This document shows positions 12,737-23,636 of a stretch of 64,000 nt of DNA, piece after piece (position 1 is the first letter of the stretch; each line of letters begins with the position of its first letter). The notes beneath the pieces are model-generated. The model made no database searches and had not been told where the DNA came from. It saw only the letters and a program-made list of their open reading frames with translations. Made by a program: the position numbers and the translations under genes. The stretch is from NCBI GenBank assembly GCA_018057455.1, contig JAGPDT010000009.1, positions 4,586 through 68,585 of the forward strand. The letters are read 5' to 3'. This stretch comes from Flavobacteriales bacterium. GTDB lineage: Bacteria; Bacteroidota; Bacteroidia; Flavobacteriales_F; PHOS-HE28.

Positions 12737-12869
12737 AGAGGTGCCCATTCCCTGCGGCAATCGGCTTGCGACGGAAGCTGCCGACCAAGCAAAGTCGCGC
12801 CGATGCATCCCTGCGGCACGTAGCTGAACGTGTGCAGGAACGCCATCCGCATGTGCAAGCTGAAGCGCC

Positions 12870-12936
12870 CGCAGGGTCTCGCGATGCGGACCCCTGCGGG
12901 GGGTATGTCGCAGGGTCCCGAGGCGGAGACCCTGCG
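12870..12936. repeat. REP-type double hairpin (H1-H2), copy a
   Basis: CGCAGGGTCTCGCGATGCGGACCCCTGCG, a 10-nt spacer, then CGCAGGGTCCCGAGGCGGAGACCCTGCG. Related copies lie at 16670-16754 and 23536-23604. Confidence 0.7.
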
Positions 12937-13261
12937 GGAGGGGGAATGTAGTGAGGCGGACCGCCCGCGCCGGGTCACGCCAAGACGTACCCATGCCTCC
13001 GGCATACAGGTCCGGTAAATAGCGGGTACAGCGATGGGACGTTCCCATAGCGTCTCGTGCTTCGTGCAGCAGATGGGTCCCGAGCTGCCTGCGCGAAGCG
13101 CTACGGCAGCCAAAGAGCGGAGACCCAGCGGAAGTTCAGGATACCATTACTTTGCCCACTGAAGTTCCGGGGGGAAATCCGAACGGTCACAGTGGGTTAC
13201 TGCTATCCACGCAGCCCGACACAGCCCTCGGAACTTCCTTTTTTTCCGGTGCTTGGCGGCA

Positions 13262-13960
13262 TCAGGCTTCTTCAGGCCAAGGCAATAAGGCGGTTCGTCC
13301 AGTGAGCACCTTGTCCAATAGTTGGCGGAACCGGCTGTCCTGCCCTGGCCGTACCAGCACATCCTGCCAACGCTCCCAAAGGACCAAATGCGGCCGCGCG
13401 AACGGATGGACCTCCAAACTGATCCCATCCCTGGACCGCCGGCTGCGCTTCAATTTGTTGCGCACGAATCCCAACGCCCATAGGTCTTGTTGGGGTTTCC
13501 CTTTCCCCACAAGCAGCTCTGCGGCACGCACGTAGCCCATCGCCTGCATGCGGAGAAGATCGGTGCCATACATGTACGGGTCGTTCCATGTGTACCAACT
13601 ATCGGCACGGCCCTGTGCATTGTTCCAATAGGACACTTCGGTGAAATGCCCTTCAGCTATCGATCGTGCTGCGTACTCATCACTGGCATAACGGAGTTCC
13701 ATGATCGCCTTGGGGCGGTACATCAATATGTCCGCATCCCGGTCCCAGATGAAGTGCTTTTCCCAGGCGGGCATTGGCACAACAGGATACCAGGTCCTCG
13801 GTTCTTCCGGCAGCCTCCGGCGCACGATGCCTGCTTCCACTTGGCGGGTTATTTCTTCTTCACTGCTGCCAAGCCAGTGCCCGTAGTCGAGGTACTGGCC
13901 ATATCCGTGCAATTTCGCCCAGCGAGGTATGTCCAAGTGATACGGGTAGCGGCGTGGCAT
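13262..13960 (-). CDS. hypothetical protein (232 aa, Trp/Tyr-rich), no family recognised
   Basis: Clean ORF with no competing long shadow frame and lower GC than the core genes. MPRRYPYHLDIPRWAKLHGYGQYLDYGHW... Confidence 0.55.
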   Translation of the reverse strand: MPRRYPYHLDIPRWAKLHGYGQYLDYGHWLGSSEEEITRQVEAGIVRRRLPEEPRTWYPVVPMPAWEKHFIWDRDADILMYRPKAIMELRYASDEYAARSIAEGHFTEVSYWNNAQGRADSWYTWNDPYMYGTDLLRMQAMGYVRAAELLVGKGKPQQDLWALGFVRNKLKRSRRSRDGISLEVHPFARPHLVLWERWQDVLVRPGQDSRFRQLLDKVLTGRTALLPWPEEA

Positions 13961-14004
13961 GGAGGCAATGTAGCACTGGCAAGCCCGATCTACCTTGCCT
14001 GCGC

Positions 14005-14877
14005 ATGATGAGCCAAAAACACGTGAGGGACCGTTTCAACCGGAAGCAGCAATTGGCCGCCGAAGGACATGCGGAGTTGTTGGACTTCATGCATGGTTCA
14101 TTTGCTCCTGTGATTGCATCCATTCCATTGTTGAGGCACGCCAAGAAGCATGGCATAGAGCCACTGTGTACGCCGGGCCATCTGCGAAGGAGCGACCTGG
14201 TGCGTTGGGGTTTGCTGGAGAAAGTGGTAACGGACGATGCGCTCGACCCATACGATGGCTATCGGCCAACTGAAGAGGGGAGCCGATACCTGCTCTATGA
14301 GGAGGCCTTTCAACTGCTTGCAATACGTAGCGGCTTCGCCAAGGAGCTGATGGACCGGCGCGAAGCTGAAGTGCAACGGGAATCCAGCGAATGTTTTGAG
14401 CAATTGGATCCAGGGGAGAAGACAGCGGCGATCTTCGCGATGAGGGAGTTCATCGGCCTGCATCAATTCAACCCCGACAAACAATGGGGGAACGCATGGA
14501 CACTGCGTGATCATGAAGGCCATGACCTGGTGCTGCCCATTGAATTAGTTCGTCGCAAGACGGCGCGGGAAGAAAGCCTATCGTTCATTGGAGGCATCGA
14601 GGAACTGTTCAGCAACCCGGATGAGGTGCGAGTGGTTGAACAGCCGGGCGGATTGCGCACGCACCGGTACATCAAGATCTATCCCGGTCTCGTGCTGTTC
14701 GGCATCGTGGCGATCGAAGGCGACCGGCCCGTGCGGATCGTTGATTGGTTCGGCTTCACATACGATCCAAGTTCAGCTGATTATACTGCGCAGAAGGAGA
14801 TCATTCGGCGGGACTGGATTGGTGAATGCATCCATGTTGGTCCGGAGCATCCATCAAAACAGGCCAAGAAGGAATGA
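14005..14877 (+). CDS. hypothetical protein (290 aa), no family recognised
   Basis: ORF 13774..14877 trimmed to ATG 14005 (MMSQKHVRDRF...), because the upstream part overlaps the divergent gene. The C-terminus is beta-rich: THRYIKIYPGLVLFGIVAIEGDRPVRIVDWFGF. Confidence 0.55.
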   Translation: MMSQKHVRDRFNRKQQLAAEGHAELLDFMHGSFAPVIASIPLLRHAKKHGIEPLCTPGHLRRSDLVRWGLLEKVVTDDALDPYDGYRPTEEGSRYLLYEEAFQLLAIRSGFAKELMDRREAEVQRESSECFEQLDPGEKTAAIFAMREFIGLHQFNPDKQWGNAWTLRDHEGHDLVLPIELVRRKTAREESLSFIGGIEELFSNPDEVRVVEQPGGLRTHRYIKIYPGLVLFGIVAIEGDRPVRIVDWFGFTYDPSSADYTAQKEIIRRDWIGECIHVGPEHPSKQAKKE

Positions 14878-14988
14878 GCGGTTCTCGCTCCTTATGAGCT
14901 GCAACCTGGACTCCGTTCCTTCCCGCGCCGGGTCACGCCAACAAGGACCACCGGCAAAAAGCGGATCCTGCGCTGGGATGGGCCTTGC

Positions 14989-15164
14989 TGTGCGCCCCCC
15001 GCCGTACGGCGGGTCGTTCACACTCTGGTTGCGGTAGTTCTACGCTGTGTGACATCCTTCGGAGTCACCAATTGCACCTCACCAAGTGACCCCAACGGGG
15101 TCACAAAGCGTAGCATGCTGACAATCTCCGGCGGTTCGACCCGCCGCATGGCGGGCGTCGCACA
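14989..15164. repeat. nested palindromic element, copy B
   Basis: TGTGCGCCCC..GTCG ... CTACGCTGTGTGACATCCTTCGGAGTCAC ... GTGACCCCAACGGGGTCACAAAGCGTAG ... CGAC..GGGCGTCGCACA. The arm order matches copy A (5940-6104). Confidence 0.7.
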
Positions 15165-15260
15165 AGATCCCCTTTTTGCAGGGAGACAAAGACGCATCTA
15201 GCCTGAAGCGAACTTCCCCCATTCCCGTGCCCTTCCTACTTTGCCCCTTCACATTCCACC

Positions 15261-18122
15261 ATGTCCATTTCCCGCCGCGAGATCCGCACCCGCGCCACCA
15301 AGTTCGCCAAGCAATGGGCCCAGGCCACCGACGAGGAGGCCGATGCCAAGCCCTTCTGGTACGAGTTCTTCCACGTCTTCGGCATCCGTGCGCGCACCGT
15401 GGGCAGCTACGAAGTGCATGTGCGCAAGCTCGATGACGCCTTGGGCAAGATCGATTACTTCTGGCCCGGCATGCTGCTCATTGAGCACAAGAGCCGCGGC
15501 AAGGACCTGAAGAAGGCCGCTATTCAAGCAGTGGATTACCTCCACGGCGTGAAGGAGCACGAGAAGCCGCGCTACATCATCGTCAGTGATTTCGCCCGCT
15601 TTGTGCTGTACGACCTGGACCAGGGCACGGAGACCGAAGTGAAGCTGGAAGACCTTCCGCAGCAGATCGAGCGCTTCGACTTCATCGCCGGCTACGAGGC
15701 GCGGCCGGTGCGCGAACAAGATCCCGTGAACATCCAAGCGGCCGAGTACATGGGCCGCCTGCACGATGAACTGAAAGCCTCCGGCTATGAAGGAAAGGAA
15801 CTTGAAGTCTACTTGGTGCGCTTGCTCTTCATCCTCTTCGCCGACGATACCGGCATCTTCGAGCAGGACGCTTTTTACAACTTCATCGTGGACCAAACGC
15901 GCGAGGACGGCACCGACCTCGGCCCGCAGATCGCCCTGCTGTTCCAACTGCTGAACACGCCCGATGCCAAGCGCCAGAAGAACCTCGATGAGCGCCTCGC
16001 CGACTTCAAGTACATCAACGGAAAACTCTTCGCCGAGCCGCTGCCCATCGCCCATTGGAACGGCGGCATGCGCGTTACCCTGCTGGAATGCGCCAGCCTC
16101 AACTGGAGCCGCATCAGCCCCGCCATCTTCGGTGCGCTGTTCCAGAGCGCCATGGATGCCAAGGCCCGCCGCAACCTCGGCGCGCACTACACCAGCGAGC
16201 AGAACATCCTCAAGCTCATCAAGCCGCTTTTCCTGGATGAACTGTGGGCCGAATTTGAGAAGGTGAAAGGCAGCAAGGCCAAGCTGGAGCAGTTCCACGG
16301 CAAGCTGAGCGAGCTGCGCTTTTTGGACCCCGCCTGCGGCTGCGGCAACTTTTTGGTGATCACCTACCGCGAGTTGCGCGAACTGGAGATCGCCGTGATC
16401 ACCGCCCAACTGAAAGGCCAGCAAGTGGTGGACGTGGACAAGCTGGTGCTGCTGAACGTGGACCGCTTTTTCGGGATCGAGATCGAGGAGTTCCCCGCGC
16501 AGATCGCCCAGGTGGCCATGTGGCTGATGGACCACCAAATGAACCAGCGCATCAGCGCGGCCTTTGGCGAGTACATGGTGCGGATCCCGCTGCGCAAAAG
16601 CGCCACCATCGCGTGTGCCAATGCGCTTACTACGGATTGGCAGGGGTTGTTGGTTCCCGGGCGTGGAGCCGCAGGGTCCCGAAGCGGAGACCCTGCGGGA
16701 GTTGCGGAGGGGGTAGGGGAAGCTCCCGCAGGGTCTCGCATGGCGGACCCTGCGTTGGAACATCGCTTCGACTACATCCTCGGCAATCCGCCGTTCATCG
16801 GCAGCAAGCTGATGACCACCGACATGCGCACGGACCTCCTGCGCATCTTCCCCGGCGTGAAGGGCGCGGGCACGCTGGATTTCGTGTGCGGTTGGTACGG
16901 CCTGGCCGCGCAATACATGAAGGCGCACGGTGATGGAAAGACCTGCTCCGCCTTCGTGAGCACCAACAGCATTACGCAGGGTGAACAGGTGGGCGCGCTG
17001 TGGGGGCCGCTGCTCGCCCAAGGGATCAAGGTCCACTTTGCACACCGCACGTTTCATTGGAACAACGAGGCGCGCGGCGTGGCCGCCGTGCATTGCGTCA
17101 TCATCGGCTTCGCGAATTTCGATGTGCCCAAGAAGCGCTTGTTCAGCTACGCGGACCCAAAGGCCGAACCGGAGGAAAGCGTGGTGGCGAACATCAGCCC
17201 GTATTTGGTGGAAGGCGGGGATGTGGTGATCTACAGCCGCCAACGACCGCTATGCAATGTGCCGGAGATCGGTATTGGCAACAAGCCCATTGATGGCGGC
17301 TACTACCTCTTCACGGACGAAGAGAAGGCCGCGTTCATCCGCAATGAACCCGGATCCAAGAAGTACTTCCACCGGTGGCTGGGCAGCGATGAGTTCATCA
17401 ACGGTTGGCAGCGCTGGTGCCTGTGGTTGGGTGAGGCATCTCCATCAGAATTAAAGACAATGCCCGAAGTGCTTGCAACAATTGAGTTAGTGAGGAAATA
17501 CCGATTGGGGCTGATAAAGGCAAAGAGTGGAAGGGAAGCAACGGCTGGTGGAAGTTCTTTGAAGCTCGCTGAAACGCCTACCCAGTTCCACGTGCAATTC
17601 ATTCCGAAGGAGCGATTCATGGTGATTCCGGAAGTCTCGTCAGAAAGGCGGAAATACATTCCCATGGGTTATATGGAACCGGATACACTGTGCTCGAACA
17701 AGCTCCGGTTGATGCCACATGCTACGCTGTTTCACTTTGGGATCTTGATGTCGAACATGCACATGGCTTGGACAAATCATGTTTGTGGAAGATTGGAAAG
17801 CAGATACCAGTATTCGATCAAGATCGTGTACAACAACTTCCCGTGGCCTGAGCAACCCACGGCCGCGCAACAAGCCGCCGTGGAGAAGGCCGCGCAAGGG
17901 GTGCTGGATGCGCGGGCGCAATTCGCCACCGCAAGCCTCGCGGACCTCTACGACCCGCTCACCATGCCACCCGCGCTGGTAAAAGCCCACCAAGCCTTGG
18001 ACAAGGCCGTGGACAAGTGCTACCGCCCGCAGCCGTTCGCGAATGATGCGAAGCGGGTGGAGTATTTGTTTGAGTTGTATGAGCGGTATGTGGGTGGGTT
18101 GATGGGTGGGAAAAGGGGTTAG
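15261..18122 (+). CDS. MmeI-family Type IIL restriction-modification enzyme (fused PD-ExK nuclease + N6-adenine methyltransferase + TRD)
   Basis: N-terminal IDYFWPGMLLIEHK gives D-X9-E-X-K. SAM motif I is FLDPACGCGNFLV and motif IV is GNPPF. The helical C-terminal tail is KAHQALDKAVDKCY...RVEYLFELYERY. Length 953 aa. Confidence 0.85.
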   Translation: MSISRREIRTRATKFAKQWAQATDEEADAKPFWYEFFHVFGIRARTVGSYEVHVRKLDDALGKIDYFWPGMLLIEHKSRGKDLKKAAIQAVDYLHGVKEHEKPRYIIVSDFARFVLYDLDQGTETEVKLEDLPQQIERFDFIAGYEARPVREQDPVNIQAAEYMGRLHDELKASGYEGKELEVYLVRLLFILFADDTGIFEQDAFYNFIVDQTREDGTDLGPQIALLFQLLNTPDAKRQKNLDERLADFKYINGKLFAEPLPIAHWNGGMRVTLLECASLNWSRISPAIFGALFQSAMDAKARRNLGAHYTSEQNILKLIKPLFLDELWAEFEKVKGSKAKLEQFHGKLSELRFLDPACGCGNFLVITYRELRELEIAVITAQLKGQQVVDVDKLVLLNVDRFFGIEIEEFPAQIAQVAMWLMDHQMNQRISAAFGEYMVRIPLRKSATIACANALTTDWQGLLVPGRGAAGSRSGDPAGVAEGVGEAPAGSRMADPALEHRFDYILGNPPFIGSKLMTTDMRTDLLRIFPGVKGAGTLDFVCGWYGLAAQYMKAHGDGKTCSAFVSTNSITQGEQVGALWGPLLAQGIKVHFAHRTFHWNNEARGVAAVHCVIIGFANFDVPKKRLFSYADPKAEPEESVVANISPYLVEGGDVVIYSRQRPLCNVPEIGIGNKPIDGGYYLFTDEEKAAFIRNEPGSKKYFHRWLGSDEFINGWQRWCLWLGEASPSELKTMPEVLATIELVRKYRLGLIKAKSGREATAGGSSLKLAETPTQFHVQFIPKERFMVIPEVSSERRKYIPMGYMEPDTLCSNKLRLMPHATLFHFGILMSNMHMAWTNHVCGRLESRYQYSIKIVYNNFPWPEQPTAAQQAAVEKAAQGVLDARAQFATASLADLYDPLTMPPALVKAHQALDKAVDKCYRPQPFANDAKRVEYLFELYERYVGGLMGGKRG
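16670..16754. repeat. REP-type double hairpin (H2-H1) inside the MmeI-like CDS, in frame
   Basis: CGCAGGGTCCCGAAGCGGAGACCCTGCG ... CGCAGGGTCTCGCATGGCGGACCCTGCG. It is translated as ...AAGSRSGDPAGVAEGVGEAPAGSRMADPA... just upstream of FDYILGNPPF. Confidence 0.7.
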
Positions 18123-18157
18123 GCAATTGAAATGGAAATGATCCCGAACTTTGAAGC

Positions 18158-19321
18158 ATGATTATCACACGGTTGAAGCTCAAGAATTGGAGAAATTTCA
18201 AGCACGTTGAGGTGAACCTCCGTGAGCGGGTGTACCTCATAGGGCCAAATGCATCCGGTAAATCGAACCTCCTTGACGTCTTCCGGTTTCTGCGTGATAT
18301 TGCAAAGGCGGAGGGTGGCGGGCTTCAAAAGGCCGTTGTTGGCGACCGTGGGGGATTGAAGCGGATACGGTGCCTCAACGCCCGCAGGGATCCCGAAGTG
18401 ATGATCGAGGTGGAGATGTCTGAAGCCATGAACGCGCCGGCAAAGTGGCGCTACACCTTGGGCATTAAAAGTGAAGGGACCGGGCTGCAACGGCCCGTTG
18501 TATCCCAAGAAACCGTGGTGGACTTGATCGCGGACAAGAAGTTGTTGGACCGGCCGAATGCAGAGGATGCAGGAGATCCGGAATTGCGCACGGTCACCCA
18601 TTTGGAACAGGTAAGCGCGAACAAGTCGTTCCGGGAGGTCGCCGATTTCTTCAGTGGCGTCACCTATCTCCATTTGGTGCCACAACTGTTGAAATATGGT
18701 GACCGGATCGGTGGATCGCACTTGGAGGGCGATCCCTTCGGCCAGGCATTTCTCCAGCAGATCGCCAAAGCTACCGAGCGGGTGCAGCACTCCCGATTGA
18801 AGAAGATCGAACGCGCTTTGCAGGTTTGTGTTCCGAATATGAGGCAACTCTCGTTCGAGCGCGACAAGGTGGACGGCACGCCCCATTTGGTGGCACAATT
18901 TGAACATTGGCGGCCCAACGCCGGTTGGCAACGGGAGAATGAATTCAGCGATGGCACACTCCGATTGCTCGGTATCATGTGGAGTTTGTTGGACGGTGAT
19001 GGAGTGTTGCTCTTGGAAGAGCCGGAACTTTCCTTGAACGAAGCGATCGTCGGCCGCATTCATAAGCTCGTAGTTCAGATGCAACGCCAAGCCAAATATC
19101 CCAGGCAAGTATTCATCACTACCCATAGTGAAGCTCTTTTGTCCGACGAGGGGATCGATATTCGCGAGGTGTTGCGCCTCGATCCAACCCAGGATGGCAC
19201 TGTGGTCCATGAACCGGATGAGACGGACCGGAAGCTGGTGCGGTCCGGATACACCGTCTCGCAAGCCATGCTACCCAAAGTAAAACCTAAGGGTGTGGAT
19301 CAACTCAGCTTCTTCGATTAA
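18158..19321 (+). CDS. ABC/SMC-type AAA ATPase (AAA_21-like; AriA/RloA/OLD-ATPase-like)
   Basis: Walker A GPNASGKSN, signature-like FSDGTLRLLG, Walker B VLLLEEPE, H-loop ITTHS. Confidence 0.85.
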   Translation: MIITRLKLKNWRNFKHVEVNLRERVYLIGPNASGKSNLLDVFRFLRDIAKAEGGGLQKAVVGDRGGLKRIRCLNARRDPEVMIEVEMSEAMNAPAKWRYTLGIKSEGTGLQRPVVSQETVVDLIADKKLLDRPNAEDAGDPELRTVTHLEQVSANKSFREVADFFSGVTYLHLVPQLLKYGDRIGGSHLEGDPFGQAFLQQIAKATERVQHSRLKKIERALQVCVPNMRQLSFERDKVDGTPHLVAQFEHWRPNAGWQRENEFSDGTLRLLGIMWSLLDGDGVLLLEEPELSLNEAIVGRIHKLVVQMQRQAKYPRQVFITTHSEALLSDEGIDIREVLRLDPTQDGTVVHEPDETDRKLVRSGYTVSQAMLPKVKPKGVDQLSFFD

Positions 19322-19920
19322 TGGCAGGCAGTAGGGAAGTAATGCTCGTCTGTGAAGACCAGCTGGGTGCGGATATGCTGGTGCGATTAGTTTCCCATGC
19401 AAGGCCACAATTGTCCATAAGGTCAGTGGAGGTCACTCGTGGCAACACAAGAATTGCCGCGAGCATCGGTAAATATGCACGGGCTTCACAAGCGGGCGTG
19501 GCACATATCATCCTTACGGACCTGGACCGCGTAGCATGCCCGCCAAGCCTCATTGCGGAGTGGAATGTTCCTGAAGTGCCGGGCTATCTTCTTTTCCGGG
19601 TCGCTGTCCGTGAGGTGGAATCCTGGCTCCTGGCAGACAATACAGGTCTTGCCAAATTCCTTGGAATTCCTGCTAGCAAGATCAGCATGCAGCCCGATGA
19701 GGTGAATGACCCCAAGGAGAACCTGATGAACCTGGTGCGACGCTGTAGAAATAAACGGCTCAAACAAGATATCCTACCGGAAACAGGCTCCACGGCCAAG
19801 AAGGGCGTATTCTACAATGAACGTTTCGGTCGATTTGTCAGAATCGATTGGAACTTGGAGCGTGCTGCAAAATTATCACCGAGCTTGAACAAGGCTCTTC
19901 TTCGAATCGGAAGTTTTTAG
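19321..19920 (+). CDS. Toprim-like small protein (DUF4276/DUF4435 class), partner of the ATPase
   Basis: Its ATG overlaps the upstream stop (TAATG). The acidic motifs LVCEDQ, ILTDLD and REVESWLLAD occur in Toprim order (E / DxD / E). Length 199 aa. Confidence 0.6.
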   Translation: MAGSREVMLVCEDQLGADMLVRLVSHARPQLSIRSVEVTRGNTRIAASIGKYARASQAGVAHIILTDLDRVACPPSLIAEWNVPEVPGYLLFRVAVREVESWLLADNTGLAKFLGIPASKISMQPDEVNDPKENLMNLVRRCRNKRLKQDILPETGSTAKKGVFYNERFGRFVRIDWNLERAAKLSPSLNKALLRIGSF

Positions 19921-19936
19921 GATCTCGTTCCACCCA

Positions 19937-20860
19937 ATGGACTTCATCACCCTCGACTTTGAAACGGCCAATCGGAACCGCAACAGCGCCTGCGAACTGG
20001 GCCTCACCTTCGTAAAGAACGGTGTGGTGGGAGAAACCCGAAGCTGGCTCTTGAAACCCATCCCGAACGACTTCGACTACTTCAATATCCTGCTGCACGG
20101 CATACGGCCGGAGATGGTCCAGGACCAGCCTGAGTTCAATGCCTTGTGGCCCGAGGTGCAACCGTTGCTGGAAGGCCAATTCGTGATCGCGCACAATGCC
20201 GGGTTCGACATCAGCGTACTTCGCAGGACGATGGAGCAATACGGAATTCCCTTTCCGAACATGAGCTATGCGTGCAGCTACATTTTCTCCAAACGCGTAT
20301 GGGAAGGATTGCCTTCCTATGGCCTGAAGGAACTGTGCGCGAAGAATGAAATTGCGTTCCGCCATCACCGCGCAGGGCCGGACAGCAGGGCCACGGCGGA
20401 ACTGGCGCTGAAGGCGTTTGAGTGCGCAGGAATTGAACGGCCAGATGACCTGCCCAACAAATTGAGGACCACCATCGGTGCATTGTTCCCCGGCGGGTTC
20501 CATGCGTGCAGGGCCAAGTCCGACAAAACCAGCCGGTGGTCCACTCCCCATCCTTCAAGCTTCATAGGGGATCCAGCAAAACAAGACCCGGATAATTTGT
20601 TCTTTGGCCAAACAGTGGTCTTCACGGGAGCATTGTCATCCATGACCCGTGCTGAAGCGCAACAAGCCATTGCGGACATCGGAGGGGTCAACGGGGTTGG
20701 TGTTACCAAGCAGACCGGCTTCTTGGTCGTCGGCCAGCAGGATTATCGCTTGGTCGGTGAAGATGGCTTGAGCGGAAAGCAGGAGAAGGCGCTAAAGTTG
20801 AAGGCGGCCGGAGTGCCGATCGAGATCATGTCGGAAGCGGATTTCAAGGACCACATCTGA
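19937..20860 (+). CDS. DEDDh 3'-5' exonuclease (DnaQ-like) fused to a C-terminal BRCT domain
   Basis: DFETAN (DxE), HNAGFD and HRAGPDSRA (Hx4D). The BRCT-like part is FFGQTVVFTGALSSMTRAEAQQAIADIGG...GFLVVG. Confidence 0.8.
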   Translation: MDFITLDFETANRNRNSACELGLTFVKNGVVGETRSWLLKPIPNDFDYFNILLHGIRPEMVQDQPEFNALWPEVQPLLEGQFVIAHNAGFDISVLRRTMEQYGIPFPNMSYACSYIFSKRVWEGLPSYGLKELCAKNEIAFRHHRAGPDSRATAELALKAFECAGIERPDDLPNKLRTTIGALFPGGFHACRAKSDKTSRWSTPHPSSFIGDPAKQDPDNLFFGQTVVFTGALSSMTRAEAQQAIADIGGVNGVGVTKQTGFLVVGQQDYRLVGEDGLSGKQEKALKLKAAGVPIEIMSEADFKDHI

Positions 20861-20893
20861 TATCGAGTCCTAAGAAGAACAACAGGGGGGCCA

Positions 20894-20983
20894 TTCATTG
20901 GCGCGAGCGCCCTCCGCTCGTGCATCATTCCATCGGTTGTACTGCACCAACGCACGAGCGGAAGACGCTTGCGCGAGATCCGG
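20894..20983. repeat. hairpin element of about 90 bp, copy 1
   Basis: TTCATTGGCGCGAGCGCCCTCCGCTCGTGC-loop-GCACGAGCGGAAGACGCTTGCGCGAGATCCGG, with a stem of about 22 bp. A near-identical copy lies at 21876-21965 in the same orientation. Confidence 0.75.
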
Positions 20984-21038
20984 TGAAACTGTTGCAGAGG
21001 AAGAAGGAACGAATGGGCTTTATCTTTGAACGAAGCCA

Positions 21039-21290
21039 ATGGCACCCAAAGCGATCAAACCGAACATCGAGGGCTATGCGTTCTATTTCTTCAGCAACGA
21101 GAACAACGAACCCGCGCATGTGCATGTGCGCAAGGGAGATGGGCTGGTCAAATACTGGCTGGAACCTGCGGTGGTACTGGCCGATGATAACGGCCGCATG
21201 AAGGTGCAGGAATTGCGGCGTGCTGAAGAACTTGTAAAGGAGAACAGGAGCCGCATTGAAAAAGCTTGGAACGAATACTTCGCATTATGA
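21039..21290 (+). CDS. DUF4160 domain protein
   Basis: 83 aa. YFFSNENNEPAHVHVRKGD matches the DUF4160 core. Confidence 0.75.
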   Translation: MAPKAIKPNIEGYAFYFFSNENNEPAHVHVRKGDGLVKYWLEPAVVLADDNGRMKVQELRRAEELVKENRSRIEKAWNEYFAL

Positions 21291-21628
21291 GCAACCGAAA
21301 GCCAGTGATACAAGACCCCGTAAACGCGATGATCCGCGAACAAGGTGTCCGCATCACCGCCGTGCATGCCATCAAGGATGCGAACCTCTTGCTGGTCATG
21401 CTCAACGAAGGCCGCTTGGAGTTCCCCTTGGATGGCTTCAAGCGCCTGGCAAAAGCCAGCCAAGCCCAGCTGAACAAGTACGAGCTGCTGCCCGATGGCG
21501 CAGGTGTGCATTGGCCTGGTTTGGACGAGCACTTGAGTTTGCGCGGCTTTCTGCTCGCAACAATGCGCGAGATGCTGCATGGGCCTGCACCCGCACGTTC
21601 AAGGAAGAGCAGCAGGGTGCCGGTCTGA
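21287..21628 (+). CDS. DUF2442 domain protein
   Basis: ATGA start/stop overlap with the DUF4160 gene. ITAVHAIKDANLLLVMLNEGRLEFPLDGFKRLAKASQAQLNKYELLPDGAGVHWPGLDEHLSLRGFL is DUF2442-like. Confidence 0.75.
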   Translation: MSNRKPVIQDPVNAMIREQGVRITAVHAIKDANLLLVMLNEGRLEFPLDGFKRLAKASQAQLNKYELLPDGAGVHWPGLDEHLSLRGFLLATMREMLHGPAPARSRKSSRVPV

Positions 21629-21875
21629 AGGGGGATGTGCATAGCCGCGGTATAGCGCTGCGGACACAGTCAGAAAACGCAAAACCAGTCACAGACGGCA
21701 TATAACTCCCTCTGCGACCGGTGCCGTAATCTCGAACTAGCTATAACATTGATCAGAACCAAACACGATGGACTGGTTCACAGCCTGGCTAAGCTTGTTG
21801 ATCGTAGGTTGGTGGAATCGCCGAAAAGATAGGCGGGAGCAGCGCCGGACACGGCGTTAGGGACATCAACGCCTT

Positions 21876-21965
21876 TTCATTGGCGCGAGCGTCCTCCGCA
21901 CGTGCCTCATTCCATCGGTTGTACTGCACAAACGCACGAGTGGAGGGCGCTTGCGTGAGCTCCGG
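21876..21965. repeat. hairpin element of about 90 bp, copy 2
   Basis: TTCATTGGCGCGAGCGTCCTCCGCACGTGC-loop-GCACGAGTGGAGGGCGCTTGCGTGAGCTCCGG. A degenerate short-loop derivative (CTCGTGCTGGCAATCGCACGAGCGGAGGA) lies at about 22905-22945. Confidence 0.75.
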
Positions 21966-21967
21966 GG

Positions 21968-22390
21968 TCAATCAACTCCCCACGCCGCACAAAGATCCCG
22001 GAATACGATGTATGCCGCCATTTCCCGCATGGAGAATACGTAATGTGGGGTGAACGCGTGGATGTCGCCGCTTTCACGGACGATCCGGGCTGAGAGCGGG
22101 TCCAGGATCGCCAACCCATTTTGGGTGACATCCTTAAAATATGCCTTGTTGGCCACGGTGTCTTTGTTCAAGTACTGAATGCAGTACTTGCGCTCACGAT
22201 GTTCGAACAGAACGGGCTCGTCGTTGATCCATACCTTACCGCACCCGCCGCATTCTGTCGTATTCAGGCGCTGGCTCATGATCCTTTCCATTGCCATGCT
22301 GTCTGTGGAATAGGCCACGGACCACACCAACGTCAGTTGCTCGTGGCCGCAAGCAGGGCATTTGAATTCATGGTTTCTCTTTATGGACAT
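21968..22390 (-). CDS. CpXC domain protein (paralogue 1)
   Basis: CPACGHEQ ... ECGGCGK zinc-ribbon pair. The core YCIQYL is shared with the neighbouring gene. Confidence 0.7.
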   Translation of the reverse strand: MSIKRNHEFKCPACGHEQLTLVWSVAYSTDSMAMERIMSQRLNTTECGGCGKVWINDEPVLFEHRERKYCIQYLNKDTVANKAYFKDVTQNGLAILDPLSARIVRESGDIHAFTPHYVFSMREMAAYIVFRDLCAAWGVD

Positions 22391-22406
22391 GGCAGCTTAT
22401 TGGCTT

Positions 22407-22865
22407 TCATTCATCAGCGTCGGCAGCAGGGGTTTCCTCCGGTGCATCCTTGCCCCACCGGGCGCAACGATCACGGAAATCGATGTAGGCGACCAACTCA
22501 TCCATGCCGAACACGAAGTGGGGGCGGAGAAAATGTTCGCCTTGGGTGTTCATGGCGATTGCGGTGCTGATCGCGTCCATGACCTGGGTTCCCTGCTTGG
22601 TGATCCTTGCATAGGTTTCCTTCGCTCCCATGACCTCCTCGCCAAGGTATTGTATGCAGTACCCCCGTTCCAGGTCATGGTAGAGCAAGCTTCCGTCCAC
22701 GAAGGCCCTCGACTTGCACTTCTCGCACTCGAAAATGTTCAAGCGTTGTTCTTTCAACGCATGTACCAAGTCCTTGTCGCCCGTGTTCACTGAGGACCAA
22801 ACCTCCATGTGTTGCTGGTGTCCACAACTTGGGCAGGCCAATTCTTGAGGATAGGACATGGACAT
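22407..22865 (-). CDS. CpXC domain protein (paralogue 2)
   Basis: ORF 22407..22982 trimmed to MSMSYPQELACPSCGHQQ...ECEKCKS...YCIQYL. Similar to paralogue 1 along its whole length. Confidence 0.7.
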   Translation of the reverse strand: MSMSYPQELACPSCGHQQHMEVWSSVNTGDKDLVHALKEQRLNIFECEKCKSRAFVDGSLLYHDLERGYCIQYLGEEVMGAKETYARITKQGTQVMDAISTAIAMNTQGEHFLRPHFVFGMDELVAYIDFRDRCARWGKDAPEETPAADADE

Positions 22866-23002
22866 GCTCGGCGGGTATGAAGGATTGCCGCAATATAGAA
22901 TACCAGTGTCTCGTGCTGGCAATCGCACGAGCGGAGGATACTCGCATGAGGTTTGGGCGCGGCATCCGCGCACGCAAGCCATGCAGCATCTTTGCCCGCA
23001 GC

Positions 23003-23505
23003 ATGTGGTTCACCGATCTTTTCGGCTTTGAAGAGGAAACGGCTGAGCAGGTGCGGCGCAACTTGGCCCACATCGCCACCGTGCTGCACGACATGAATGA
23101 TGCAGTCCGGCAACGGTTGAAAGGGAAGCTGAGGATCGGGCTGCAATGGGATACGGAAGTGACCTTGGCGGATCCAGCGCAGATCGTATCCCAAGCGTAT
23201 TGCTCGGCATTACCGCTCGCATACTCCCATGTGGATGGCGGTCTCTGGGAGCCTTTTGCACGCTTGATCCTGGAGGCGACCTAGAAGCCACGTTGTTTGC
23301 GGCGCTGATCAATCTCGAACGGCGCGGCTCGAACATCGTTTACCTCACCTTGCTCGGTGGCGGTGCCTTCGGGAATCCCCAGGTGTGGATCATGGATGCA
23401 CTGCGGCAAGCACTTCATAGGTTCAAGGATGTGCCATTGGACGTGCGGATCGTGAGCTACGGCAGCCCGGATCCCTTGGTGAAGGCAATGGCGGATGGCT
23501 GGTGA
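23003..23505 (+). pseudogene. frameshifted gene, possible macro/PARG-like fold
   Basis: ORF 22829..23284 (from MWFTDLFGFEEE) ends ...ARLILEAT-TAG. ORF 23146..23505, in another frame, continues ...DLEATLFAALINLERRG...YLTLLGGGAFGNPQVWIMDAL. The EAT codons are duplicated around the break at about 23270-23290. Confidence 0.5.
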
Positions 23506-23535
23506 GGACTAGGCCCGAGCGCGATCTGAAGCTCC

Positions 23536-23604
23536 CGCGTGGTCTCGCAAAGCGGATCCTGCGGTGGAACAGGGATTGCCCGGTCCCGAGGCGGAGATCC
23601 CATG
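23536..23604. repeat. REP-type double hairpin (H1-H2), copy c (diverged)
   Basis: CGCGTGGTCTCGCAAAGCGGATCCTGCG ... CCGGTCCCGAGGCGGAGATCCCATGG. Same H1-H2 order as copy a. Confidence 0.55.
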
Positions 23605-23636
23605 GGAATGTATGCCCGCCGCCCGGACGGGTGGAC

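Follow-up and report, generated by a model that had tools for sequence, protein, structure and literature searches.

A HEC-01 ATPase-Toprim gene pair beside an MmeI-type restriction-modification gene and an exonuclease-BRCT gene in a Flavobacteriales accessory island

An ATPase-Toprim gene pair in a low-GC3 island

The subject of this analysis is a run of four genes in a 64,000-nucleotide stretch of contig JAGPDT010000009.1 from a Flavobacteriales bacterium (assembly GCA_018057455.1), the whole of which is referred to here as the window. All four lie on the plus strand: a gene for a 953-residue MmeI-family type IIG restriction-modification (R-M) enzyme at 15261-18122, identified from the open reading frame (ORF) table and its MmeI Pfam domains; a 387-residue ABC-type (AAA_21/AAA_15) ATPase at 18158-19321, identified by PADLOC, Pfam and motifs; a 199-residue partner at 19321-19920, which PADLOC and a structure model mark as a candidate Toprim nuclease of the DUF4276 type; and, at 19937-20860, a 307-residue protein that Pfam and NCBIfam assign as a DnaQ-like DEDDh 3'-5' exonuclease with a C-terminal BRCT domain. 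The R-M and ATPase genes are 35 nt apart (18123-18157). At the junction of the ATPase and partner genes, GATTAATGGCA, the last A of the TAA stop codon is the first base of the ATG (TAATG, a 1-base overlap), and a gap of 16 nt (19921-19936) separates the partner gene from the exonuclease gene. A preliminary description of this DNA, made from the sequence alone, had given the extent of the last three genes (18158-20860), their common orientation, the TAATG junction and both gaps, all of which are borne out by the ORF table and the sequence, and had gone on to propose that ATPase, Toprim-like partner and exonuclease make up a three-gene anti-phage module resembling OLD, PARIS or AbiL. Here we show that the pair belongs to a catalogued two-gene candidate anti-phage system, HEC-01, and that the exonuclease gene moves independently of it.

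Both proteins of the pair match the HEC-01 profiles of PADLOC over their full length. The ATPase aligns with the HEC-01A hidden Markov model (HMM) PDLC04180 at E=3.2e-145 (482 bits; residues 1-384 on model positions 1-379 of 382) and the partner with the HEC-01B model PDLC04194 at E=4.4e-53 (residues 6-198 on positions 5-196 of 204), two further HEC-01B models matching the partner at E=4e-46 and 3e-37. A homologous ATPase gene ends no more than 80 nt upstream of the partner gene in 59 of the 63 loci that have room for it, and the two genes are strictly linked across loci. Because of these full-length HMM matches, the adjacency of the genes and the Toprim fold and acidic site described below, the pair is assigned to HEC-01, of which it is a member by every feature tested. 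HEC-01, one of the 'Hma-embedded candidates', consists of an ABC ATPase together with a TOPRIM protein, HEC-01B, that shares the metal site of the Burkholderia pseudomallei OLD protein (Payne et al., bioRxiv 10.1101/2024.01.29.577857). Like its known members, the window pair consists of two adjacent, co-oriented genes, for an ABC-type ATPase and a Toprim protein of about 200 residues with a conserved acidic metal site, and like them it is found beside or inside an R-M-like system. It differs in adjoining a single-gene MmeI-type IIG enzyme instead of being embedded in an Hma system, and in being followed after 16 nt by an unrelated exonuclease gene; relatives stand alone or beside Hma or type III-like genes. 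The earlier recognition of an ATPase-Toprim pair next to an R-M gene stands, and its placement fits the family, but the pair is neither undescribed nor a member of OLD, PARIS or AbiL proper. Profile HMM and PADLOC searches, which the preliminary description had recommended, label it HEC-01 over its full length; a routine PADLOC run would do the same, and the assignment matters little for discovery. It does contribute a case of HEC-01 from the Flavobacteriales in which the pair adjoins a type IIG R-M enzyme, and any tractable member of this mechanistically uncharacterised family has some value.

The four genes lie within an accessory island (13262-23505) delimited by its GC profile and by G+C content at third codon positions (GC3), which is 0.54-0.79 inside and 0.83-0.88 outside; a DUF4160/DUF2442 pair, two CpXC genes and ORFs without assignment make up the remainder. 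GC3 is 0.655 for the ATPase gene, 0.540 for the partner and 0.708 for the exonuclease, compared with 0.83-0.88 for the flanking core genes, and the pair has a total G+C of 0.537 and the exonuclease gene one of 0.563, compared with 0.616 for the whole window. The low G+C that had been noticed on two sampled lines is real, at 0.50 (18241-18300) and 0.433 (19861-19920). No tRNA gene was found in the 64-kb window, nor any integrase or tRNA gene that would mark the island as an integrated element. The stretch from 14927 to the exonuclease stop at 20861 is shared with a sister metagenome-assembled genome (MAG; L001, uncultured Flavobacteriales), and the flanks differ on either side.

Toprim assignment and comparison with related systems

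The acidic motifs of the partner are CEDQ (residues 11-14), TDLD (66-69) and EVESW (98-102), of which E12, D13, D67, D69, E98 and E100 show no variation among 28 aligned partner homologues with identities down to 38%. In an AlphaFold2 model of the protein (predicted local distance difference test score, pLDDT, 89.1; predicted template modelling score, pTM, 0.85) strands and helices alternate. Strand 1 (5-11) leads directly into E12/D13, strand 3 (61-66) is followed by D67xD69 and strand 4 (90-94) by E98/E100, which is the Toprim arrangement. A Foldseek search of the PDB returned OLD-nuclease C-terminal Toprim-containing regions as all of the best five matches (6NK8, 6NJV, 6NJW, 6NJX), with a probability of 0.90-1.00 for these five and of 0.99-1.00 for the best three. 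The Toprim reading of the 199-residue protein, which the preliminary description would have given up had no Toprim or OLD-type match been found, is upheld by the invariant acidic residues, the model and these OLD matches. It should be noted that sequence and model show the presence and conservation of the putative catalytic residues and nothing beyond that. HEC-01B and DUF4276 have been assigned to Toprim on structural grounds in the literature, where RloB is likewise placed in that superfamily and Mad4, from MADS, is described as homologous to DUF4276.

In the ATPase, an intact set of nucleotide-binding motifs, consisting of a Walker A motif (GPNASGKS, residues 29-36), a signature-like motif (FSDGT, 263-267), a Walker B motif (LLLEEPE, 284-290) and an H-loop (TTHS, 321-324), accompanies a match to Pfam AAA_21 at E=3.7e-34.

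With PARIS the pair shares a split ABC ATPase (AriA) and Toprim protein (AriB, a DUF4435 tRNase), and the two probably have a sensor/effector logic in common. However, the one AriA model that the ATPase matches is aligned in the manner of a generic AAA_21 protein (E=1.5e-30, PADLOC), the partner has 199 residues where AriB has about 300, and it matches no AriB or DUF4435 model in PADLOC or Pfam; among the fold-search matches the AriA/B complex comes no higher than 17th, with a probability of 0.14. PARIS is furthermore often phage-borne, whereas the family of the window partner was found on no viral contig in our scan. Membership of PARIS was rejected for want of an AriB-type (DUF4435) match. 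The OLD and Gabija proteins supply the best structural matches of the partner (6NK8, 6NJV), and the N-terminus of the ATPase resembles GajA and Old, yet GajA and Old models and PDB chains align to that N-terminus only (residues 1-48, or 1-53 at most), ATPase and Toprim domains are fused in those proteins and encoded by two genes here, and no GajB-like helicase lies near the window pair. The split genes and the restriction of the similarity to the ATPase N-terminus led us to reject membership of OLD or Gabija. Finally, MADS (Mad3/Mad4) and AbiL/RloAB resemble the window pair in combining an AAA_21 ATPase with a DUF4276 or RloB Toprim protein at methylation or restriction loci. MADS was rejected with the ATPase at 65.4 bits against NCBIfam MAD3, far below the cut-off of 420, and AbiL/RloAB with only the ATPase matching (AbiLi, E=9.4e-21, PADLOC); the partner matches no Mad4, AbiLii or RloB model in PADLOC or Pfam.

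The surroundings of the pair were surveyed in 86 loci, 80 of them from a metagenome scan, with 82 non-redundant loci used for the clustering of neighbours. These surveys rest on metagenome, plasmid and phage collections, and a pattern scan of genome contigs, which finds close relatives only, returned the one sister MAG when run with the exonuclease. Relatives of HEC-01B were absent from the viral-contig scan and gave one distant match in the plasmid search. The closest pairs outside the sister MAG, about 60% identical, are found in a complete Flavobacteriales genome (L003) and on a 76-kb contig (L006), where they stand alone among ordinary or housekeeping genes, with no exonuclease gene next to them and no R-M gene either. 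A conserved third gene was sought by clustering the flanking ORFs of the 82 loci and rejected, none being recurrent throughout. The neighbours that do recur are an N6_N4_Mtase (in 6 loci), a ResIII helicase (in 4) and, in 3 loci each, a DUF1156 methyltransferase, a DUF499/HEPN protein and an NB-ARC/TPR protein, which are genes of the Hma, type III-like and STAND kinds.

The exonuclease-BRCT gene and the interpretation of the locus

The exonuclease carries the motifs DFETA (residues 7-11), HNAGFD (86-91) and HHRAGPD (143-149), which are invariant in 19 homologues, and the full set of DEDDh residues (D7, E9, D91, H144, D149) is present and equally invariant. It matches Pfam RNase_T at E=7.9e-18, while its BRCT domain, at 20.1 bits, falls just below the cut-off of 21.3; relatives with at least 59% identity from several Bacteroidota orders carry both RNase_T and BRCT (PF00533), and profiles built from homologues match DinG, PolC and epsilon in their exonuclease domains, and LigA and RFC1 in their BRCT domains. 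All of the ATPase, partner and exonuclease motifs named in the preliminary description were located at defined positions, and they are not due to chance, given the AAA_21, RNase_T and MmeI profile matches and acidic partner residues that stay invariant down to 38% identity. The protein resembles the DnaQ-like exonuclease-BRCT proteins (PRK06195, PRK06063 and mycobacterial DnaQ, an alternative proofreader of the same architecture) in its N-terminal DEDDh domain with all catalytic residues and its C-terminal LigA-type BRCT domain. It differs from them in scoring below the equivalog cut-offs (full-length match to NCBIfam NF004844, PRK06195, at 269 bits against 373), and its clade is found on plasmids, phages and islands, not at one conserved chromosomal locus. 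Partial matches were also obtained to the PADLOC single-gene candidate PDC-S48 (E=3.9e-28; core only, 57-168 of 411 model positions) and to a PADLOC model of Cas-associated DEDDh proteins.

To define exonuclease loci, a relative aligned over at least 200 residues was required, which gave 40 loci. The pair is absent from 39 of these, the sole carrier being the sister MAG. Relatives that are 58-66% identical keep varied company: an integrase, HTH_17, AAA_25 and a resolvase in Emticicia; elsewhere transposases, HipA, DUF932, DUF3799 and a DUF4365-dynamin protein; DUF4160/DUF2442 (just upstream in L010), HicA and HepT/MNT modules; or TerB_C, BrxC/BrxD-like and DEAD-helicase genes. Three Hymenobacter plasmids carry the gene next to Tn3 transposases, a helicase or WYL regulator, and Fic/VbhA. 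More distant full-length relatives adjoin the integrase in pneumococcal prophages, and about 19 gut-phage contigs have others roughly 2 kb upstream of the gene for the tape-measure protein. In these settings (L008-L012, L093-L127) the company of the exonuclease is different each time, and the genes upstream of it change in every lineage. Because of these varied neighbours, the occurrence on plasmids and phages and an island-like GC3 of 0.708, we conclude that the exonuclease-BRCT gene is an independently mobile accessory gene and not a housekeeping gene; horizontal spread accounts for its high identity across orders better than a housekeeping role would.

Two candidate associations of the gene were considered and rejected. 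A WYL regulator, suggested as a partner by its position upstream of the exonuclease on a Hymenobacter plasmid, is not conserved, as the upstream proteins in L093 and L095 have neither a Pfam match nor similarity to the WYL protein, and the gut-phage group offers no place for it in a phage replication module, since the neighbours there are tail genes. A separate observation is that a block around the exonuclease-BRCT gene is kept in two unrelated assemblies (L093 5321-10476 and L095 5321-10489), in the order HTH_31 regulator (with HipA in L095), a 339- or 352-residue protein whose gene stops 17 nt before that of the exonuclease, the exonuclease, and a 757-residue DUF4365-GTPase/dynamin protein. 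In other lineages, then, the exonuclease could have a true multi-gene setting.

Taken as a whole, the locus is with high probability a two-gene HEC-01 module that lies beside an MmeI R-M gene in a horizontally acquired defence or mobile island of about 10 kb, in which the exonuclease is a separate mobile gene that landed there. According to this reading, 18158-19321 and 19321-19920 would form a translationally coupled module in which, by analogy with OLD, Gabija and PARIS, the ATPase may serve as a sensor or scaffold and keep the nuclease inactive. Its nucleotide state or assembly would be altered by a cue from infection, whereupon the Toprim protein could cut nucleic acid using the E12 / D67xD69 / E98-E100 metal site. 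The substrate might be DNA or tRNA, and its cutting would halt phage replication, possibly at a cost to the cell; tRNA is as plausible as DNA, since recent work has shown that AriB and P2 Old act as tRNases. The exonuclease-BRCT gene, maybe co-transcribed, would be an independently mobile resident of the same island and no component of the module.

A number of observations pull against this reading, or against parts of it. The partner scores 20.3 bits against Pfam DUF4276 (PF14103), below the gathering cut-off of 30.2; because 25 of the 28 homologues match DUF4276 at E<=0.01 even though the window protein is sub-threshold, it appears from sequence comparison to be a divergent branch of that family. 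Template modelling (TM) scores between the partner and the OLD Toprim regions are modest, at 0.38-0.45, and a PDB profile search based on sequence alone, run with the HEC-01B alignment, returned no meaningful solved relative, which is why structure prediction was needed. HEC-01 gave no protection in the E. coli assays of its discoverers (Payne et al., bioRxiv 10.1101/2024.01.29.577857), and the literature describes no activity, substrate or trigger for it; a later cold-seep study reports that E. coli B was protected by one HEC-01 representative from at least one phage out of T7, T5 and T4. With respect to the exonuclease, the gene starts only 16 nt after the pair on the same strand, and the block of MmeI gene, pair and exonuclease is kept as a unit in the sister MAG, in the same order and at protein identities of 78% (MmeI), 94% (ATPase), 87% (partner) and 95% (exonuclease). 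No plus-strand terminator-like site was found between the MmeI gene and the exonuclease stop, and the 150 nt upstream of each of the four starts are free of the Bacteroidota -7 motif (TAnnTTTG); the sole TAnnTTTG candidate of the scan is TATCTTTG, 18 nt before the ATG of the downstream DUF4160 gene, and a scan for sigma-70 promoters is uninformative for Bacteroidota, with match counts at shuffle level. Since neither kind of site lies between the genes, it is possible that R-M gene, pair and exonuclease are co-transcribed at this locus, and some local functional coupling of the exonuclease with the pair is likewise possible.

The exonuclease-BRCT gene may be a stand-alone conflict gene, active in single-gene defence, superinfection exclusion or counter-defence, that has only the island in common with HEC-01, and we hold this to be the likeliest of the alternatives while still regarding it as unlikely. 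Its accessory positions in phages, plasmids and integrative elements, surroundings rich in defence and toxin-antitoxin genes, the partial matches to PDC-S48 and the Cas-associated DEDDh model, and the published TONDOs, which are DEDDh exonucleases with auxiliary domains that are borne by mobile genetic elements and act as single-gene defences, all agree with such a role. However, the PDC-S48 match is limited to the exonuclease core, the TONDO paper makes no mention of BRCT, and a replication or repair function on behalf of a mobile element would explain the same distribution. Somewhat less likely still is the fuller proposal that this uncharacterised conflict gene moves among islands, plasmids, integrative elements and temperate phages across phyla and may here be co-transcribed with the R-M gene and HEC-01 as a composite immune operon. 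The mobile exonuclease-BRCT gene makes a modest lead for the study of phage accessory genes.

The position of the pair raises a different possibility, namely that it is a functional accessory of the MmeI-type R-M enzyme, a PARIS-like back-up within one operon, perhaps with the exonuclease, that fires when a phage disables restriction. The 35-nt gap on one strand with no terminator-like site in it would suit this, as would the finding of HEC-01 embedded in Hma systems (bioRxiv 10.1101/2024.01.29.577857), the several kinds of methyltransferase or restriction-like genes beside the pair elsewhere, and the precedent of PARIS, in which ABC-ATPase/Toprim pairs are triggered by anti-restriction proteins. 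Yet neither the 80 metagenome loci nor the two other contexts examined (L003-L007) have an MmeI homologue beside the pair, the closest pairs outside the sister MAG are solitary, the partner fits no AriB-type model, and the R-M-like genes found with the pair are of unrelated types, which suggests shared islands and not a fixed partnership. We therefore hold such an accessory role to be quite improbable. Slightly more so is the view that the exonuclease is a housekeeping proofreading or repair enzyme of the DnaQ type that is merely adjacent. Relatives annotated as 'DNA polymerase III subunit epsilon', the full-length PRK06195 match, the architecture shared with mycobacterial DnaQ and the identity of at least 59% across several Bacteroidota orders speak for it, but a GC3 that fits the island and not the core, the sub-cut-off PRK06195 score, the want of conserved synteny among integrases, resolvases, transposases, toxin-antitoxin and defence-like genes, and the presence on Hymenobacter plasmids, in pneumococcal prophages and on gut-phage contigs do not. 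The preliminary description had named conservation of the exonuclease as a housekeeping gene irrespective of the pair as a reason to abandon its three-gene module; the gene is indeed independent of the pair, but as a mobile accessory gene.

That module, in which the exonuclease would act with ATPase and Toprim protein as effector or processing partner of one anti-phage system, has on its side the common strand and 16-nt gap with no promoter or terminator motif detected, the gene order kept, MmeI gene included, in the sister MAG and the position of all genes within one low-GC3 island, but it is highly improbable, with the exonuclease present in one of the 50 pair loci that have at least 1 kb downstream, the pair in one of the 40 exonuclease loci, and both of these being the same sister MAG locus. 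Being one near-identical lineage, that MAG provides a single observation. The exonuclease-BRCT protein was found by tblastn in none of the 80 metagenome pair loci, and both the absence of a recurrent third gene and the lineage-specific upstream neighbours of the exonuclease tell against a shared system. A gene-neighbourhood survey, proposed at the outset as one of several checks, has shown that exonuclease and pair do not co-occur across lineages; the three-gene system is not a real unit, and the independent occurrence of its parts supports the other suggestion made at the time, that the exonuclease is merely a neighbour. It is mainly the possibility of local co-transcription that keeps the three-gene model from falling to zero. 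Tight spacing and co-orientation in a defence island do not make a system, and in this respect the result is a clean negative.

Repeats and other features of the island

The MmeI gene matches all five MmeI Pfam domains (E=2e-84 to 5e-22) and the PADLOC model REase_MTase_IIG at 1156 bits. Relative to the sister MAG it contains, at 16653-16763, a 99-nt in-frame insertion (96 + 3 nt) made up of two inverted copies of a GC-rich palindromic repeat, which lengthens the protein by about 33 residues (…AAGSRSGDPAGVAEGVGEAPAGSRMADPALEH…) just upstream of its NPPF catalytic motif. Copies of the palindromic element are present at both edges of the island (12862-12940 and 23528-23608), with partial copies at 13116-13141 and 14958-14988, and its 28-nt core, allowing up to 3 mismatches, occurs twice in the 64 kb (12909 and 16670) where no occurrence is expected. 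The element may mark or mediate the insertion of cassettes.

Two direct repeats were also found. One of 90 nt (20894-20983 and 21876-21965, 90% identical, with a partial copy at 22924-22950) brackets the DUF4160/DUF2442 cassette; it begins 34 nt after the exonuclease stop and contains an internal hairpin (20901-20923/20952-20974). The other, of 28 nt (12964-12991 and 14922-14949), brackets two ORFs without assignment (13262-14877), one of 232 residues on the minus strand and one of 367 residues with a weak PBECR2 nuclease-like match (E=0.004). In the sister MAG a PBECR2-like gene (E=1.3e-7, L002 475-1623) instead follows the 3' end of the exonuclease gene.

Further downstream, on the minus strand, are two tandem paralogous CpXC zinc-ribbon genes (21968-22390 and 22407-22982; Pfam E=8e-10 and 2e-14). 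At 22829-23505 two ORFs that overlap in different frames together correspond to one gene, which in the sister MAG is likewise split, though at another point (L002 1652-2643, 70% DNA identity), and may be a pseudogene or reflect a sequencing frameshift. It matches no Pfam family at E<=0.001; its LGGGAFGN motif recalls macro/PARG-like domains. Between this macro-like gene and a C-terminal fragment of dnaA, the sister MAG carries 86 nt (L002 2673-2758) that are 80% identical to the 3' end of the MmeI gene (window 18020-18105) and may have been left behind by an earlier R-M insertion or mark a scar of recombination.

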